A stretch of 64,000 nt of DNA from assembly GCA_951406725.2 (NCBI GenBank), contig OX597815.1, positions 40,548,001 through 40,612,000 of the forward strand, written 5' to 3'. The position numbers and the translations under genes are program-made. This document shows positions 10,255-57,130 of the stretch, piece after piece. The stretch is from Octopus vulgaris (taxonomy: Eukaryota). Every line of letters begins with the position of its first letter. The first letter of the stretch is position 1. Below the pieces are notes generated by a model, which saw only the letters and a program-made list of their open reading frames with translations, was not told the origin of the DNA and did no database searches.

Positions 10255-10383
10255 TCAAACACAGAACTGTCATGTTGATCCCCCCATATAAGTATTTCAG
10301 AAATAGATCTCAATGTCTCCACCAGCAGGCACCGGTTATTTTCAGTCACTGTTTGATTTTTACATAAAATACTGTACAAATAC
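10255..10383 (-). CDS. CLEC16A: CLEC16A exon 2 (K-YLYSILCKNQTVTENNRCLLVETLRSISEILIWGDQHDSSVF-D)
   Basis: CAG acceptor, GTAAGT donor, 129 nt. Contains the diagnostic LVETLRSISEILIWGDQ motif of the FPL domain family. Confidence 0.97.
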
Positions 10384-11590: not shown

Positions 11591-12761
11591 AAGATAAACA
11601 TGTCAAGGTGACTGCATCAGAACCATTGGAATTAATTAAACTAAGTAGCAAAAAGAATCACAACCTCAAAACTTTCATTAACCACGGTCATTTGCTGGAG
11701 TTGAGGCTCTTGAGGGGTATTGCATGTAGTACAATGTTATAGTTGACAAGCAAAAGAATGGAGGAATCCAAAAAGTTGGTAAAGATTCTTTACAATTCAA
11801 ATAGAATATTTAAAACTTTACATTGGTTACAGTATGGTGAACATAGTGTTAAGGAAACAATAGAAAAAGCCCCAAAATCAACTGAAAACAATTATAGTGT
11901 TCATAAACAAAAGTTACAATTGCAATTAAGCTATTTAATTTGAAACATAAACTATCAGAAACTGCACAAATAGAACCAAAACTATATTAAAACAGACTGA
12001 ATTTCCAACTGCTACAGTCCTAAATAAATCATAATCCTTTACTATCACAAATTTGCTGATACATTCATCATTACATCCAAAGATCCTTAGTCAAAGGGAT
12101 CCTGCTTAGTAGCTGTAGTAAATACGGTTGAAGGAGAAGAATACTGTACAAATACTGTACAGTGACCCAGTGATTGGAGTGTGTTAATACAGGTTCATCT
12201 ATTAGATGAACCTGTATTAACACACTCCAATCACTGGGTCACTGTACAGTATTTGTACAGTATTCTTCTCCCTCAACCGTATTTACTACAGCTACTAAGC
12301 AGGATCCCTTTGACTAAGGATCTATGCATCAGATTGTGTGATGCTCCATGCATGAGTTTAATGGAGAACAGCAGCCATAACATGTCCCAATGGACCAGTT
12401 TGTATTTAATAAAGCAGACTGGTCCTTAGCTGAACCATGTTCATATGGTACCTATACCAGACAACCAACACTGAGTGAAGGGTTCTGTTCAGAAGCAGAA
12501 GAGAAGCAATAGATATCAACATTTGATTAATGGACAGATAGGCTAATACTCAGATCACTCAGTTTTTCCTAGTACTCTCTTCTTTCAACTCTAAACTACA
12601 GTTAGAAAACCAAGTCAGTCAACCTGCTTAATCCTTTTGATACCAACACACACAAGACTGCTGCTAGTCAGTAAGATAAACATGTCAAGGTGACTGCATC
12701 AGAACCATTGGAATTAAATAAACTAAGTAGCAAAAAGAATCACAACCTCAAAACTTTCATT
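11591..12761. repeat. 89-bp direct repeats (11591-11679, 12673-12761) enclosing 993 bp
   Basis: AAGATAAACATGTCAAGG...AAACTTTCATT occurs twice with one mismatch. Confidence 0.93.
12081..12323. repeat. 243-bp near-perfect palindrome
   Basis: 121-bp arms around T12202 with one mismatch (GAAGGAG vs GAGGGAG). Confidence 0.95.
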
Positions 12762-14525: not shown

Positions 14526-15184
14526 AACTGTCCGATGAACGGGAACGTGAAACTGAGTAACAGTTCTTGTGATATTTTTGCTGCTTTTTAATAAAGCATA
14601 TTACTCTATCTCTCGTATTTGAGTACTATTTTTTTCCACCTTGTTTTGCATTTATGTGCTTACTCTTGTGTGTATATATATATATACATACACACACACG
14701 CACATATTCCATTAGCTAAATTTAATGTCTATAAAGTCAGAGTTTTATACAAAAGTATTTTTAAAATTAAGAAACTATAAGAATAAAATGCCAGTCTTAC
14801 ATCAACAATTTGATTAATAGGGAGAGAGCATATTCTATCTATATTATCTGATGTGCCTAAGATTACATTATCTAATGTGTATCATATTTTAAAATAGCAG
14901 GGATAACAGCAAGTTGGACACATTGTAAAACATGGGTGAGTTCTATTTATAAGGCGCCATGCATGTCAATTTATTTGCAAATGTAATTTCATATATTCTA
15001 ACAACTGAGTAATTAAGAATTTAGCTCTCTAAATTAGGGCCATTATCAGCCAATTACCAGACTGTTTCAAGTCAAGATATATATATATATATATATATGT
15101 AGGTCCCGGGTTGATTCGGGGTTAACCACAGTAAATAAGGTACTCAATACATAGCAGAGTAAAATTAATTTATTATATAGAAGG

Positions 15185-15235
15185 AGCTTCTACAGGACTA
15201 GAACTGTTTCATTCAAGAGAAATCTTCAGGAAGCT
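15185..15235 (-). ncRNA. Type I hammerhead ribozyme motif (family A), mirror copy, sense to the CLEC16A pre-mRNA
   Basis: Exact reverse complement of 15232-15282 within the perfect palindrome 15168-15299. Confidence 0.8.
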
Positions 15236-15282
15236 TCCTGAAGATTTCTCTTGAATGAAACAGTTCTAGTCCTGTAGAAGCT
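15232..15282 (+). ncRNA. Type I hammerhead ribozyme motif (family A)
   Basis: Stem I AGCTTC/GAAGCT; core CTGAAGA (15238-15244); stem II tTTC-TCTT-GAAt; GAAA (15257-15260); stem III CAG/CTG around loop TTCTAGTC; cleavage triplet GUA, cut after 15276. Confidence 0.8.
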
Positions 15283-15297
15283 CCTTCTATATAATAA

Positions 15298-15331
<34 letters not shown>

Positions 15332-40010: not shown

Positions 40011-41328
40011 CACATTCTTTTAAACCCAATTAATCTATACTTTTCTTCTAAAATAACAGATATTTGATTCAAAGTTAATTTTTTGCCTTACTCTCCTATT
40101 TTTGACCTCACATATTTTGACCTAACTTTTTTTTTTAATGAACTAAATTTCAACTATTTTATCTCAAAATGTATCTTGGTAGAGGACCATCAATGCTAAA
40201 AAAAACACACACATCCAATTTGGTTGAGGACTAAGTGATGAAGCCTAGAAGTGCTTACAAGTAACTAAAAGTTGACCTTAATATATTCACCCACTGCCAT
40301 GGATGAATGATTCAAAGAATGCAATATGATAATCTAAATCTGTTGTATTTTCTTCACTGCCCTGTCTGTTCATGTATGCCTTTAGATTCTGGTGTTGGCC
40401 AGAGCAAAGTGGATTTGGTAGGTGCATGATAGTTTCTGTTTCTCTAAACTTAACACATTCCAGTACTATGTCCGGAGTTGATGAGGTTATAGATGTTGTT
40501 ACCATTCATGAGTGAATGTAATTTATATTTGTATAGACTAAGCGGGAGCTGCAGTAGTGTCTGGATGCTTGAACAAGTAATGGGGATTGTCTGTCAGAAC
40601 TTACTGTAGTAACAGCCCACACTCCTCAAATATGCAGATGTTTCTGAAAAACCTTATTGAAAAATGTAATTCCTAATAGTTCAACAAAATATTAGATGCC
40701 TGTTTTCATATTACTACTCTATTTTGTCAGTGGAAAAATTCTGACAGGATCAAAATTTCAACTTGCTTCTTTATACCTTTTTCCTTCCTCAATTTTTTTC
40801 ATTAACATCAAAGTTTTATGGTGTTTTCTCACACTTCTTTTAACTCAAGGTGTCTGATATCAATATATTTTTTCTCATCACACACAATTTTTTTTTTACA
40901 CAGAATTATTATACTTACTGCTATGCACCACTGGATACCATGTAAAAATTGTTTCATAAATGTAACTGATTACACAACACAATTTTCTTGTATGCAAACA
41001 ATGGTTAATGACATTATTCCTGAAATTTAGTTTTGCTTTGTTACTAATATGTGGTTTTATATGAAAGTAATTACCAGAAGTGAAAGTGCATGACCTTAGT
41101 GGCTAGGAGGTTGCACTCATGATCATAATTTTGATTCCTGGACCAGGCAGTATTACATTGTGTTCTAGAGTAAAACACTTCATTTCACAATACTCCTGTC
41201 CACTCAGCTGTAAATGAGTCCCAGCAATAGTTGAGAAGGTAACCTTGTGACAGACCAGCGTCCCATTCAGTGGAGAGGGAGGGGAGTGTTGTAATCTCAG
41301 TCACATATAGGCAGACCTAACCTAAATT

Positions 41329-43242
41329 ATATAGAGTCAAGGTGACCAATCAGATGTGGTATTACTAGCTCCTGTATCACAAGCTTGTATTTCACAATGG
41401 GTGTAGTTTCTCTGAGGAAAATCAACTACTTGTTTCATTTATTCTATCACAAATATCTTTTCCTGGAAAGGTATTATTACATCAATATAACATTTCAAAA
41501 GCCAGTCTCATGGACTGGTTTTAATTAACTATTATGACTGCTGAAAGGAATGACATCCCTGTAAGAACTCAAACCTAAACCCAACAGCTAATTATTTCAA
41601 AGAAAATAACCAAATATATTGCTTTATTTTACAAATGGTGTTCAAACAGCTTCAATAAAAATATAAATACATGGAAAACAAGCAATATTAAAAAAAAAAA
41701 GAATTTTCAATAAACATAAAAATATAAAAGTAGCAATAAACAATACAATAATTTTTAATTGTAATACATGTTTTAAATGGCACATTTTAGCAGACAAAAT
41801 TCTTTTTATTGAAAAAGAACTGGTGATAAAAAAAATTACTTTATTTACAGCTACTTCACGGTTGTCCTGAAACTGTTGTTGTTTGGTACCAGTCAGTGTG
41901 ATTTCAGCAAACCTTTTTGCATGGAAGTAACCAGTCAACTTTTTTTTTTTTAAACCCAAAATCTTGTTCACTTTGCCTGCTATGCTTAAATTATGTTAAT
42001 TTGGTTTAAAATGCATTCCTTTTTTCAATAAAGCATAGTAAGGAAAGATGCATAGGAGCCTTGCCTAGAAAATGATCAATATGAAGAAAATCTATACTAC
42101 TAATCTCTTCAAACAACTCAAGAGAAAATTCATGGAGATAATTTAGACAGTCCTCATTTACAGGTTTAGCTCCAGCTCAATCCTGGCTGAAGAGACTTTT
42201 GATCAAAAGCATTCCAACCATGACCATCCAATCTGTTTATGGGTATGTAGGATTACATTATCTGTCTGTTTATCTGAGAAGTTCACTTTGCAGTCATTCT
42301 ATCTCACAGTATGACATCAAAAAAATTTCTTTACCACAGTCTCATGTCAAACCAAACCTAGCAAGTGAAATTAAGTAAACAGAAACTGAGTAGAAACTGG
42401 CAAAGTGGACTGTATCTGTAATTCAAAGGTTTGGCTTTGCAACATTGCATCATGCTGATTCTACATGAATTAAAGAAATTCATAGATCTGTGTAATACTC
42501 AACCACTTTGCTTGTTAATTCACTGAGTATGTCATTAAACTAACTGAACAACTTTTAAATATTTTTATATGTCAAAAACCTCAAAATGCCATCTAATAGT
42601 CATGATAACCTAGTCTCCAATGAAACAAAAGTATAATCCCTATACATTTCAAATAAAGTCTTCCTCTGTATTCTCCCTAAATGCGAGCAACATTCCACTT
42701 TCAAAAACATTACAAATACTTGAGCCTAACTATCTGCAATTTCTTATATATCAATACCCTCCTATCTCTTAAAGCCAAAACATTCCTCAGAGCTGATAAG
42801 CTGCTGACCCACTACAAAACTAAAGTGCGATCTACCTACCAGGACAAACACAAACATCTTCTGCATCTGAAAAAAAGATTGACAGACTTGTACACATAAC
42901 CACTAACTCATTGACACATTTTTTTTTCTCTTATCTTTTAATAACTACTACTATGATGTATGCTTCTCTGAACTTGATGCATTCCCCTCTCCTTGTTGTC
43001 ATGATCCTACCCAAGCCTTTCACTTAATAGAAAGACTTGTTTAATCCCAGGTTAAATTCTAGCTTTGATTATTCCAGCTTTTCTTTTTCTGTTGTTTGGT
43101 ACCAGTCAGTATGGTTATTTGTGATAGAATAAATGAAGCAAGTAGTTGATTTTCCTCAGAGAAACTACACCCATTGTGAAATACAAGCTTGTGATACAGG
43201 AGCTAGTAATACCACATCTGATTGGTCACCTTGACTCTATAT
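41329..43242. repeat. 127-bp inverted repeat pair (41329-41455 / 43116-43242)
   Basis: Reverse-complement match with one mismatch across a spacer of about 1.66 kb. Confidence 0.93.
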
Positions 43243-45363
43243 GTCTAAGATTACATTATCTAATGTACTATTTTTGTACATTATTGTACTATTATTTAAG
43301 GAAATTTGATTATTTCTTGTAGGTTAAGCAACCACCTAAGGACTCCTTTTGTGGCTTGTTCAAACAGATGTTTTACTACAAGATGTCAATCTACAGAAAG
43401 TGAAGCTGAAACTCCACTACATCAACCTCACCAGTCTGGGACAGTCTAAAGTGGATAGGTACTGCCTCTTTGAGTAATAAAAAATATGTATATCATCACT
43501 ATCAACATAATTTTTATTTGCCTTCAAAGCTAACACAGGCTGAATGCATTGCCTCAGTCCACGTTGGTTCTTATTCAGAGGTACTGCCATTCTTGTTGAG
43601 TTGGAGGACCATGTTAGTGTGTGTGTGTGTACACACACACGGTATTCTGGTGTAATTGGACAAGTTTTTTTGTCTCCTTTTTTTCAGGAACATTTTGATG
43701 TATGAACAGTAACAGTCAATGGCAATAAAGAGAATAAAGATTGAAGTAGTAGCTGAGAAAAAGTTAGCTGAGTTGGGAGGACTAGAAGCTAAATATTGGA
43801 AAAGAGTCGCCTGTATCATGATGATTTGCATCAGATATCAAAATCTCAACATCATGGCTGCTGCTCAATGCTCTGTGAACACTGTAAAGGTTGTCAGACA
43901 TGACATGAACAGCTAACAATTTTCAAATGGTAAAATGATTTCATTCATTCAATGATAAAAATTTTGCTGCATTACAATTACAAATTATCAAGGTAGAGTA
44001 GAGCAAACCAATAGCATTATATTACTGGTACTTATTCTATTTCTCTAATGGTGAGGAGACTCTAGTTTGAGAACTTATGTCCAGGCCAGTCACATAATCC
44101 TTTAGAAATATATAATTTATTACTGTTAATACTTGTACATACAGTGTAAGTGTTATATACTAAAAGCAACATGAAAATATAGTTCCTTTCCCTTCTGTGG
44201 TGAAAGATTGTAAAATACTCAGTTCCCTATCTCAAGTGAAATAAAAGTAAAAGGAGAAACTGGGAACTCATCTTAAATTTCTGTAATAATGTTTTTTAAC
44301 CACATGTCAGCTCCAATCAAATACATATGATGAAAGGCCTTCTGTCTATGACCATTGCATCTTATTTTCAGGTATTGTACATAATACATTATTCACTGTG
44401 CACTTTCCTTAAGATAGTAGTGTGATCTGAGACAGATTTGGCTGCTATTCTGAGCAACATAGTAGAGGCTCCTTCATGACCTATAATAGTATTTACATTT
44501 ATATTTATAATGTAGGCACACAAGGCCACATATGTTATATATTTTGATAGAGGGGTTATTCAATTAAATCAACCCCACTACTTGAATGGTAATTTATTGT
44601 ATCAATTCTGGAATAATGAAAGGAAAAAATTGACCAAGCAGAATGAGACTGAAACAGAACTAAGTACCACAAAGAATGGTGTCCAGCTCAATATTGATTC
44701 TGCCATTAATAATTATAATAATTTTTCATACTGGAATAAGCTAATTTAAAAGGGAGGAGGATAATGTCAATTGAATCTACTGCAATACAAATCTGGCTAG
44801 ATTTGAATGAGGACCTAACTGGGGCACAGAAACAAAATTCCCTTCTTGCACAGTTTTTCCTGCAGGTATCAACCTGCAAAAATTTAATCCTTTCTATATC
44901 AATCCACTCAAGACAGCCTTCAATCCCATGATACAAAACCATTTGTTTTAAAATGTTTGTATGTAACTCTTTAGCATTCAAATTATTCTGTCAAATGTAA
45001 TGCTTATTTATTCACATTGTTTTGAATTAATCATGCATTGTCTCATAGCCTTGAGACTTTGATAATGTGGTCATAGGATAGGTGTGAGAGGCAGGATATG
45101 TCTGATTTGAACATAAAACATACATGCAAAAGGGTTAAATCTTTTTTTTCAGTTCTGTTCCAAACACCAAATTAATAATGAACAAGTTATGTTATAAATT
45201 TCTCTAAATTCTTCATTTTTAAAAAAATTAATTGAGATACAGTCAATTTCATTGCCAGATTTTATAATAAATATGGTAACAAAAGGCTAAAATGGAACAT
45301 GAATCACATTAATGTCAATGGTCATGAAGGACCTGAAAATACCATAGACAGAGCCCCTGCCTC

Positions 45364-53780: not shown

Positions 53781-53788
53781 TATGTTTA

Positions 53789-53819
<31 letters not shown>

Positions 53820-53999
53820 ATATTAGGGAATAAATCCAAATTTACAGGGAAAATCAGATTTAGGATTGAATCCAATTTTATAGTAAAATATTATATAATA
53901 TTAATTAGAGACAAAACCACTATTTTGCAAATCAAACAAAGAAAGACTTAATCCAATACATAAAACAATTTTAATATAAATTAAATAAAATTATATTAG

Positions 54000-54045
54000 C
54001 CACTACAATTGTTTCATGTCTCTTCTCAGGACATTCATCAGGTGG
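54000..54045 (-). ncRNA. Minimal type I hammerhead ribozyme motif (family B), mirror copy, sense to the CLEC16A pre-mRNA
   Basis: Exact reverse complement of 54105-54150 within the palindrome 53892-54258. Confidence 0.88.
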
Positions 54046-54104
54046 ATTTCAGGTCTTCTATTCTATTTTAAGTTTAACTTAAAATAGAATAGAAGACCTG
54101 AAAT

Positions 54105-54150
54105 CCACCTGATGAATGTCCTGAGAAGAGACATGAAACAATTGTAGTGG
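54105..54150 (+). ncRNA. Minimal type I hammerhead ribozyme motif (family B, Penelope-like)
   Basis: Stem I CCAC/GTGG; core CTGATGA (54109-54115); stem II ATGTC/GACAT; GAAA (54135-54138); minimal stem III with palindromic CAATTG; triplet GUA, cut after 54146. Confidence 0.88.
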
Positions 54151-54245
54151 CTAATATAATTTTATTTAATTTATATTAAAATTGTTTTATGTATTGGATT
54201 AAGTCTTTCTTTGTTTGATTTGCAAAATAGTGGTTTTGTCTCTAA

Positions 54246-54295
<50 letters not shown>

Positions 54296-54299
<4 letters not shown>

Positions 54300-54614
54300 T
54301 CTATAATTATGAGTATAATTATAATTAGGGTTCAGCAAAATTTGCTTCACCACATACCGAAATTTAGAAATAGCAGTTAAACTACTATAAGATATCTCCC
54401 AATTGCTGTCTGGAAGATATCTTATGGTAGTTTAACTGCTATTTCTAAATTTCGGTATGTGGTGAAGCAAATTTTGCTGAACCCTAAATATAATTATACA
54501 ATTATACTCATAATTATAGAATTTTTGTATAAGTTTACCAATAACAGTTCTTTTAACATACCAAACTACTTGGTAAAATTATTAATTAATTAATTTTACC
54601 CTTTATTATTATTG
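54296..54614. mobile_element. Fold-back insert in (TA)n without a canonical hammerhead
   Basis: Roughly 100-bp inverted arms (54296-54397 / 54415-54524), a right extension ending TTATTATTATTG, and (TA)n flanks. Confidence 0.6.
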
Positions 54615-56656: not shown

Positions 56657-56856
56657 AACACATGCATTTTTAAAAATAATATATATAATTAAATTGATGG
56701 GTTAAACAGTAATTATGACAATGTAGGTGTGTATAAAATATACATATATTTATGCGTGTGTGTAGGTTTTTTTTTTTCCTTTTTCTGTCTGGTGATTTAC
56801 AACGTATAACATTAACCAGTCTGCTAATCAACAACTTACAGATAACATTTACTTAC

Positions 56857-56933
56857 TTGAGGTGTTCCAAGGAATGGGGGTTTTTGGGCTTCCACAGAGC
56901 TCCGGGTAACCAATTTTTAGACCTCCTAAGCAT
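56857..56933 (-). CDS. CLEC16A: CLEC16A/GOP-1/Ema orthologue, coding exon 1 (MLRRSKNWLPGALWKPKNPHSLEHL-K)
   Basis: ATG at 56933. The HSLEHLK motif matches the CLEC16A N-terminus (HSLDHLK). Donor AA|GTAAGT at 56856. 77 nt, phase 2, joins exon 2 in frame. Confidence 0.92.
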
Positions 56934-57130
56934 CCTGATCGAATCGAAATCTGTGTCAGAATAAAACCAAGGATCTGTTTCTGTCAATTGTTTGTGATCG
57001 CCAGCCGACATTGTAGTTGTCAGCCATTATTATTTTGTCATGTGGGCTGACATATTAAAGGCAACATGTGATTGGTTGATATTATAACAAATTACGTATT
57101 CATCCAGCCACTTCCACAGCCTTCCAACTA
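56934..57130 (-). promoter_or_regulatory. Probable CLEC16A 5'UTR / core promoter
   Basis: Directly upstream of exon 1 with locally retained CpGs. YY1-like AATAATGGCTG near 57021-57031 and CCAAT at 57071-57075, both on the minus strand. The TSS cannot be determined. Confidence 0.45.

Follow-up and report, generated by a model that had tools for sequence, protein, structure and literature searches.

The locus examined here raises the question of what a perfect palindrome with a hammerhead ribozyme motif on each strand represents in the first intron of a CLEC16A-like gene of Octopus vulgaris, how it was formed and whether its ribozyme affects the host transcript. The window, i.e. the whole stretch of DNA analysed, is 64,000 nt long (contig OX597815.1, positions 40,548,001 to 40,612,000).

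The arms of the palindrome (53892-54074 and 54076-54258) are 183 nt long each, 100% complementary and separated by a spacer of 1 nt, which agrees with the 367-bp palindrome free of arm mismatches described in an earlier note on this DNA. The extent of 53892-54258 given there holds for the palindrome, but not for the full insertion, which spans 53806-54258 and includes a tail of 86 nt on the left (minus) arm. This one-sided tail and a spliced-out intron are informative features that the note had missed. The tail has no mirror on the plus arm, which stops at unit position 183 in (TA)n. No unique target-site duplication is readable at the window insertion, both flanks of which consist of (TA)n. 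The features of the locus are as follows:

53788-53805, unstranded: left (TA)n target flank
53806-54258, unstranded: whole insertion, two head-to-head spliced pLTR 5' parts of a Hydra-type Penelope-like element (PLE), with a tail on the left arm only
53806-53891, minus strand: tail, unit positions 184-269, beyond the palindrome
53892-54074, minus strand: left arm covering unit positions 1-183, in sense on the strand of the host transcript
54000-54045, minus strand: hammerhead motif of type I, in sense orientation within the host pre-mRNA, with cleavage predicted at 54004/54003
54075-54258, plus strand: right arm, unit positions 0-183, tail-less, continuing into (TA)n
54095-54096, plus strand (mirror 54055/54054 on the minus strand): exon-exon junction left by a lost GT-AG intron, 9 nt 5' of helix I
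54105-54150, plus strand: mirror copy of the hammerhead, with cleavage predicted after 54146
54253-54296, unstranded: right (TA)n target flank, its initial 6 nt common to the arm end
56854-57037, minus strand: first coding exon of the CLEC16A-like host gene, ATG at 57011 (presumed-RNA contig)

The motif of 46 nt reads CCAC-CTGATGA-ATGTC-CTGAGAAGA-GACAT-GAA-AC-AATT-GT-A-GTGG and is a type-I hammerhead, present once per strand. Its placement 30 nt either side of the axis, as described previously, was confirmed at 54105-54150 (plus) and 54000-54045 (minus), and the minus-strand cut formerly assigned to 54003/54004 coincides with the scissile bond predicted here. When the 64-kb window was scanned for core plus stem II, this motif was the only match, once per strand. 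The exact 46-nt motif occurs 50 times in the genome, with 18 of these matches arranged in 9 divergent (back-to-back) pairs, while a reversed control pattern gave 0 matches. The conserved core (CUGAUGA, GAAA, GUA) and helices I, II and III (4, 5 and 2 bp) are present. Helix III, with its 2 bp, is capped by AAUU, and ACAAUUGU is therefore self-complementary (computed at -6.4 kcal/mol as a duplex). This short palindromic helix III is of the dimer-dependent kind that the note had recognised. Lunse et al. have reportedly published on dimer cleavage. The designation 'textbook minimal' is slightly strong, given that the pair 10.1-11.1 of the window motif is A-U, not G-C, and that Rfam yielded no hammerhead match in the window at gathering thresholds (locally, 2 chance snoRNA matches with E-values of 0.6 and 2.7 were obtained).

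A G-C pair at 10.1-11.1 is called highly conserved by Cervera and de la Pena (2014, PMC4209133), who described opposite-strand hammerhead pairs 100-700 bp apart that derive from truncated PLEs. The motif studied here shares the short helix I (4 bp), the palindromic helix III and the opposite-strand pairing with the PLE hammerheads of that study, but differs in the A-U pair and in lacking an extra base before helix II. Such motifs showed no cleavage as monomers and low cleavage as dimers and trimers (PMC4209133). In the Anolis element PAc, ribozyme cleavage was absent without protein and the ribozyme was not required (Frangieh et al. 2024, PMC11167929). The former statement that these hammerheads cleave efficiently as dimers is overstated in the light of both reports.

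In 12 core-intact variants from the family, only N7, loop II, one compensated pair of helix II and a helix III maintained by wobble pairing vary; the scan demanded an intact core, and the hammerhead of the copy L170 is broken. Subfamily hammerheads (L087, L088, L102, L153, L085) have the first pair of helix II compensated from A-U to U-A, carry U, C or A at N7 and keep helix III self-complementary via G-U. This variation hints that the dimer fold may be under selection in master copies. None of 114 family arms starts at the ribozyme cut site, in agreement with PMC11167929, where the template is uncut RNA. An apparent clustering of 5' ends at the cut was rejected, as the cluster at 77-84 represents AT-rich sequence past the cut site, and apparent arm starts at 90-110 were found to be diverged subfamilies cut off by the identity filter.

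A search of the 2.8-Gb genome with the arm yielded 945 first-look candidates (40 scored, 55 matches), and the tail yielded 445, the best 40 of which are 100% identical to the window tail. Sampled arms deviate from the majority by a median of 0.8% (85 arms). The window insertion is thus one copy of a young repeat family, in the full-length copies of which the tail sits just upstream of the ORF. Classification of 80 of 90 loci (10 repeats of the same place were omitted) gave 70 insertions; the samples are top-scoring matches, about half of them picked for having the tail. Divergent pairs account for 43 of the 70 insertions. They combine a tailed arm with an arm ending at 183 in 39 cases and with a slightly shorter arm in 3, whereas 1 pair is tail-less and 0 have two tails. 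Exactly one tail is hence present in 42 of the 43 pairs, the layout of the window insertion included. The same was true for 16 of 17 pairs in a tail-blind subset of 24 insertions, again including the window (p 1.4e-4 against independent 50% odds). Palindrome axes differ among copies, and the 3' ends fall at two fixed places, approximately 183 and 260-269. At the loci examined, tail-end flanks run into (TA)n, which is the insertion preference of the Hydra clade, and a pattern for the sequence past the tail retrieved only microsatellite flanks among the matches listed. Beside one family copy, a tandem array of ~4.7 kb with a period near 76 nt was observed (L161:635-5347).

A GT-AG intron of 1078-1144 nt was found in 7 of 8 long copies checked, which read AGAAG/GT ... 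TTTTTAG/ATCTG, and both arms in the window run straight across the junction. Since this intron is missing from both arms but present in longer copies, the arms were templated by spliced sense RNA, which shows an RNA intermediate of sense polarity. Exact junctions in the genome number 31 spliced and 34 unspliced. In each of the 29 spliced arms sampled, the match to upstream sequence is limited to 13 nt at most and ends around the initiator-like TCACTT; among copies extending further upstream, 11 of 12 kept the intron. The exception is L185 (G000:C9:62750500-62760400), with two spliced arms, one reaching ~360 nt upstream of exon 1. It is the only spliced copy found to extend upstream of exon 1 and possibly an intronless promoter-bearing copy, so that intronless DNA masters are possible. 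Splice state agreed between the arms of all 8 exact-pattern pairs (6 spliced/spliced, 2 unspliced/unspliced, 0 mixed; P ~0.02). With near-exact pairs included, 11 and 3 pairs were concordant (P ~0.003, with same-source pairs not fully independent).

The parent element was located by walking upstream from long copies. A PLE origin had been proposed in the earlier note together with a search for the parent, and both are answered by two ORF-linked copies, L159 and L170. L159 features two pLTRs (99.1% identical over 1352 nt) flanking a frameshifted ORF, each ending in a hammerhead-plus-tail unit that is 88% identical to the window, and the ORF starts ~40 nt past the tail. The hammerhead lies within both pLTRs of L159 and of L160. 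L170 repeats the window layout at a 5-kb scale, with a tail-less inverted arm, ORF residues 283-820 (83-89% identical) and a tailed arm; its tailed unit is 94% identical to the window. Overall, the window unit shares 88-94% identity with ORF-linked copies, and 94% is the highest identity found for any copy with an ORF. Among copies that keep the intron, L171 comes closest (98.4%), and 6.9 kb of sequence upstream of it shows no ORF. The pLTR whose 3' part forms the unit is that of an RT/GIY-YIG (EN+ Penelope-like) element.

An open frame of 821 codons of the Hydra-type ORF is present in L158 (3280-5742, minus strand). It contains YRDD, YIGST, KWK (44), DKT (129), CxCx5C, CxxC and CxH, the cysteine-rich motifs being CTCRDKSKC at 673 (linker), CYLC at 778 and CRH at 807, whereas DKG, GxKF/Y and Cx2-5CxxC did not occur in the motif scan. 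The GIY-YIG core has a single Cys and no CCHH. The ORF is 28-37% identical to 10 database proteins with the same motifs (RW[KR] in 8 of 10); Pfam gave no match for the 821-aa ORF, nor did a PDB sequence search find anything. Between thumb and linker, it carries an N/K-rich insert of ~80 residues that most homologues lack and that recalls the N-rich inserts of Adineta Penelopes (PMC3846280).

The Hydra clade comprises C-terminal EN+ Penelope-like elements and includes Hydra-1_Obim, an octopus family in the supplement of Craig et al. (2021, PMC8557442). Judged by its motifs, the parent ORF appears to match this clade as defined there, namely in DKT, CxCx5C, CxxC and CxH and in the lack of CCHH and GxKF/Y. 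The canonical hammerhead, the (TA)n target and the octopus host are further similarities. Differences are KWK in place of the RWK of the clade and a unit length above 3 kb, which results from a long GT-rich 3' region and a 1.1-kb pLTR intron. The available entry of Hydra-1_Obim notes no pLTR, whereas L159 has two, and the hammerhead found here is unlike the one listed for Hydra-1_Obim and therefore belongs to another family.

The GIY-YIG profile search of the genome (148 matches of 150 scored, 6136 candidates) also returned a Neptune-type family of 781 aa and others, which were rejected as parent because they lack this pLTR. The Neptune-type PLE (L124:2930-8172, G000:C16) is very abundant and young. 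Its RT/GIY-YIG frame comprises 781 codons and is preceded by one of 359 codons that has no Pfam match, its 456-nt pLTRs are 99.3% identical, and the scan found no canonical hammerhead. Another PLE (L128:2821-5983, G000:C14) possesses a perfect inverted 5' copy of 766 nt and has CCGAAGA as the core of a hammerhead-like motif.

Based on these results, we consider it very probable that the window harbours a promoterless, ORF-less and intron-lacking stub of a PLE with Hydra-clade motifs, for which both strands of a (TA)n tract were likely cut and the front of a spliced RNA was copied twice head to head, with the hammerhead as a predicted silent passenger. Transcription would start ~6-13 nt upstream of unit position 1, at the initiator-like TCACTT. 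The enzyme of the element would cut both strands of the (TA)n tract, each cut DNA strand would prime at one of two internal start sites, and both cDNAs would extend to the 5' end of the RNA through the uncut hammerhead, where they would be joined. We infer two-site priming from the fixed ends, the one-sided tail, the loss of the intron and the (TA)n flanks, together with the finding that PAc cuts and extends both strands from two internal start sites (PMC11167929). Tails on exactly one arm and the agreeing splice state suggest one RNA primed at two sites. Anolis Poseidon PAc resembles the family in the two internal start sites that bound the tail, the AT-rich target and the uncut RNA template, but belongs to another clade, and its ORF starts inside the hammerhead, compared to ~40 nt after the tail here.

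On a broader scale, the family may constitute a natural record of Penelope integration, a reading we offer tentatively and with somewhat less than even confidence. One spliced, uncut sense RNA would be primed at two fixed sites by the two cut DNA strands, and the resulting head-to-head arms would have a single tail and a common splice state: priming in the first pLTR (intron spliced) would lead to dead promoterless stubs, and priming in the last pLTR (intron mostly unspliced) to the only promoter-bearing copies. If true, this would solve the long-standing puzzle of why Penelope-like elements retain introns, with no need for an antisense template. The origin of inverted ends with a one-sided tail and the survival of introns are treated as open points in PMC8557442 and PMC3846280, and the near-identical copies, divided about equally between spliced and unspliced (31 and 34 exact junctions), bear on both. 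In addition, the family supplies a near-intact octopod Hydra-type ORF with two pLTRs for in vitro work.

The same element and the same inert outcome would be expected if the second arm arose by self-primed fold-back of the cDNA, as put forward for such junctions in PMC3846280, or if the arms were later homogenised by conversion. The two window arms have three non-majority letters in common, one of them unique to this locus by exact genome pattern, and 38 sampled pairs contain 14 variants shared by both arms, 5 of which are private to their own locus in the sample. These shared variants and the invariably concordant splice state favour one template RNA, but fit fold-back or later conversion too. 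However, in 8 of the 43 pairs (L003, L010, L012, L015, L030, L037, L050, L103) the 5' reach of the tail-less arm exceeds that of the tailed arm by 70 nt or more, which rules out copying of one arm from the other unless a deletion followed. The version with an antisense template (PMC3846280) offers no explanation either, since both arms are spliced. We thus regard fold-back or conversion as unlikely and retain priming of one RNA at two sites. A perfect palindrome might, moreover, be produced by an assembly or read fold-back artefact, and here the arms are 100% identical and the junction is spanned by no read or contig among the presumed-RNA contigs of the locus. Arm-to-arm differences amount to 32 of 3192 sites in 38 sampled pairs, and perfect identity in the window is not special because this rate predicts a probability of ~0.16 for zero differences over 183 nt. 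A folded read would also have mirrored the tail and the flank, whereas the two ends of the insertion match exactly the two fixed 3' ends of the family, with (TA)n on both sides, and 42 other sampled pairs show the same layout with varied axes and with arm mismatches. An artefact is accordingly the least probable of all explanations considered, and close to negligible.

Regarding the host gene, the 52-codon frame of its first coding exon shares 90% identity with a CLEC16A-like protein of an argonaut. The GT donor is located at 56853, intron 1 extends from 56853 to 10384 (46,470 nt) and the next exon begins at 10383. The palindrome axis lies 2778 nt from the donor, as stated in the earlier note ('2.8 kb into intron 1'), and the sense hammerhead on the host strand 2.85 kb past it. 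The weight given to this position near the 5' end of the gene is unsupported, as the same arrangement with an identical hammerhead is found at 8 other sites. The suggestion that the ribozyme was disabled in cis is supported: each strand has one sense copy, no second sense hammerhead exists in the 64-kb window and transcription of either strand reaches the antisense arm before the sense arm. The computed long-range pairing probability of the hammerhead is 0.9995, and the active monomer fold reaches -3.6 kcal/mol. In the CLEC16A-like pre-mRNA, the antisense arm would be made first and would zip the ribozyme into a duplex of 183 bp; in any case, helix III, with its 2 bp, would depend on a second sense copy. 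The hammerhead is hence predicted to be sequestered in a hairpin of the host transcript. We presume that an intronic duplex of 183 bp could be a substrate for A-to-I editing in a cephalopod.

A different role would be that of a conditional ribozyme switch, which cuts the CLEC16A-like pre-mRNA early in intron 1 and lowers expression once the hairpin is opened by editing, a helicase or dimerisation in trans. The intact core, the presence of one sense copy 2.85 kb past the donor on the strand of the host and the helix III palindrome, which pairs between two copies at -6.4 kcal/mol, are in line with such a switch. It is nevertheless very improbable, as the antisense arm comes first (pairing 0.9995), the window provides no second sense copy, the family is young (median 0.8% from the majority) with its layout repeated at 8 other sites, and activity was low even for dimers in PMC4209133. 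The depth of presumed-RNA contigs in intron 1 is alike on both sides of the insertion (2.6-5.8 and 4.1-6.2), and bins upstream of the host gene are empty of such contigs while intron 1 is covered on both sides; these are weak hints, as the donor animals may lack the insertion. The element sits in (TA)n within an intron of 46 kb, and nothing points to cleavage or abortion of the host transcript, as had been proposed. The hammerhead in the host intron likely does nothing, and a host-regulatory role of the insertion is unlikely. As a feature of the host gene, this piece of young retrotransposon debris matters little.

Opposite-strand hammerhead pairs, a pLTR intron, inverted copies with one tail and an octopus Hydra family are already known. 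Inverted copies in (TA)n whose tail is confined to one side appear in the scheme of PMC8557442 and for Adineta Pen2a_Av in PMC3846280. Pen2a_Av shares the head-to-head inverted copy, the tail on one arm and an initiator-like TCACT near the pLTR start with the family described here. The window insertion differs in that it consists of two stubs only, that both arms are spliced and that the tail measures ~80 nt, compared to 30-40 bp in print and 31-40 in Pen2a_Av (PMC3846280). Spliced transcripts of Penelope from D. virilis were reported in PMC2377424. The pLTR intron of that element likewise ends at the 5' side of helix I (PMC4209133), but the acceptor found here is 9 nt before helix I and the intron is 1.1 kb instead of 75 nt long. 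Non-LTR retrozymes (bioRxiv 10.64898/2026.07.22.740005) are similarly short, non-coding and PLE-derived with a type-I hammerhead, but form head-to-tail tandems, in contrast to the head-to-head arrangement with one sense copy per strand seen here. They are defined by at least 2 consecutive head-to-tail complete hammerhead units, and the window contains only two copies on opposite strands. In PMC13282606, 31 recently active Penelope-like families are given for O. vulgaris, with Hydra and hammerheads unmentioned in its accessible text. No paper on spliced genomic PLE stubs or twin priming in Penelope was found in the open literature searched; spliced genomic copies may be described in subscription papers such as Arkhipova 2003 and 2006.

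The window contains further repeats. Adjoining the (TA)n tract on its right side, another palindromic stub of unrelated sequence occupies 54296-54610, with arms of ~115 nt (87% identity overall, 97% over a core of 89 nt), ~85 nt of additional sequence on the right arm only and related copies in 8 examined loci; it appears to be a further stub of PLE type that inserted into this target. The palindrome at 15080-15299 has perfect arms of 66 nt, is extended on one side and contains a hammerhead-like motif of variant sequence (CTGAAGA ... GAAAC). Its left arm is 98.6% identical to L100 over 148 nt, and it is probably the 'family A' of the earlier note. At 12075-12329, a palindrome with 127-nt arms (98%) and a 1-nt spacer has neither (TA)n flanks nor a hammerhead and found no match among the examined loci; it is possibly a fold-back or MITE-like element. 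Inverted repeats of 138 nt (41318-41455 and 43116-43253, 96% identity) lie 1660 nt apart with no long ORF between them, and this pair (41318-43253) is a possible non-autonomous DNA transposon.
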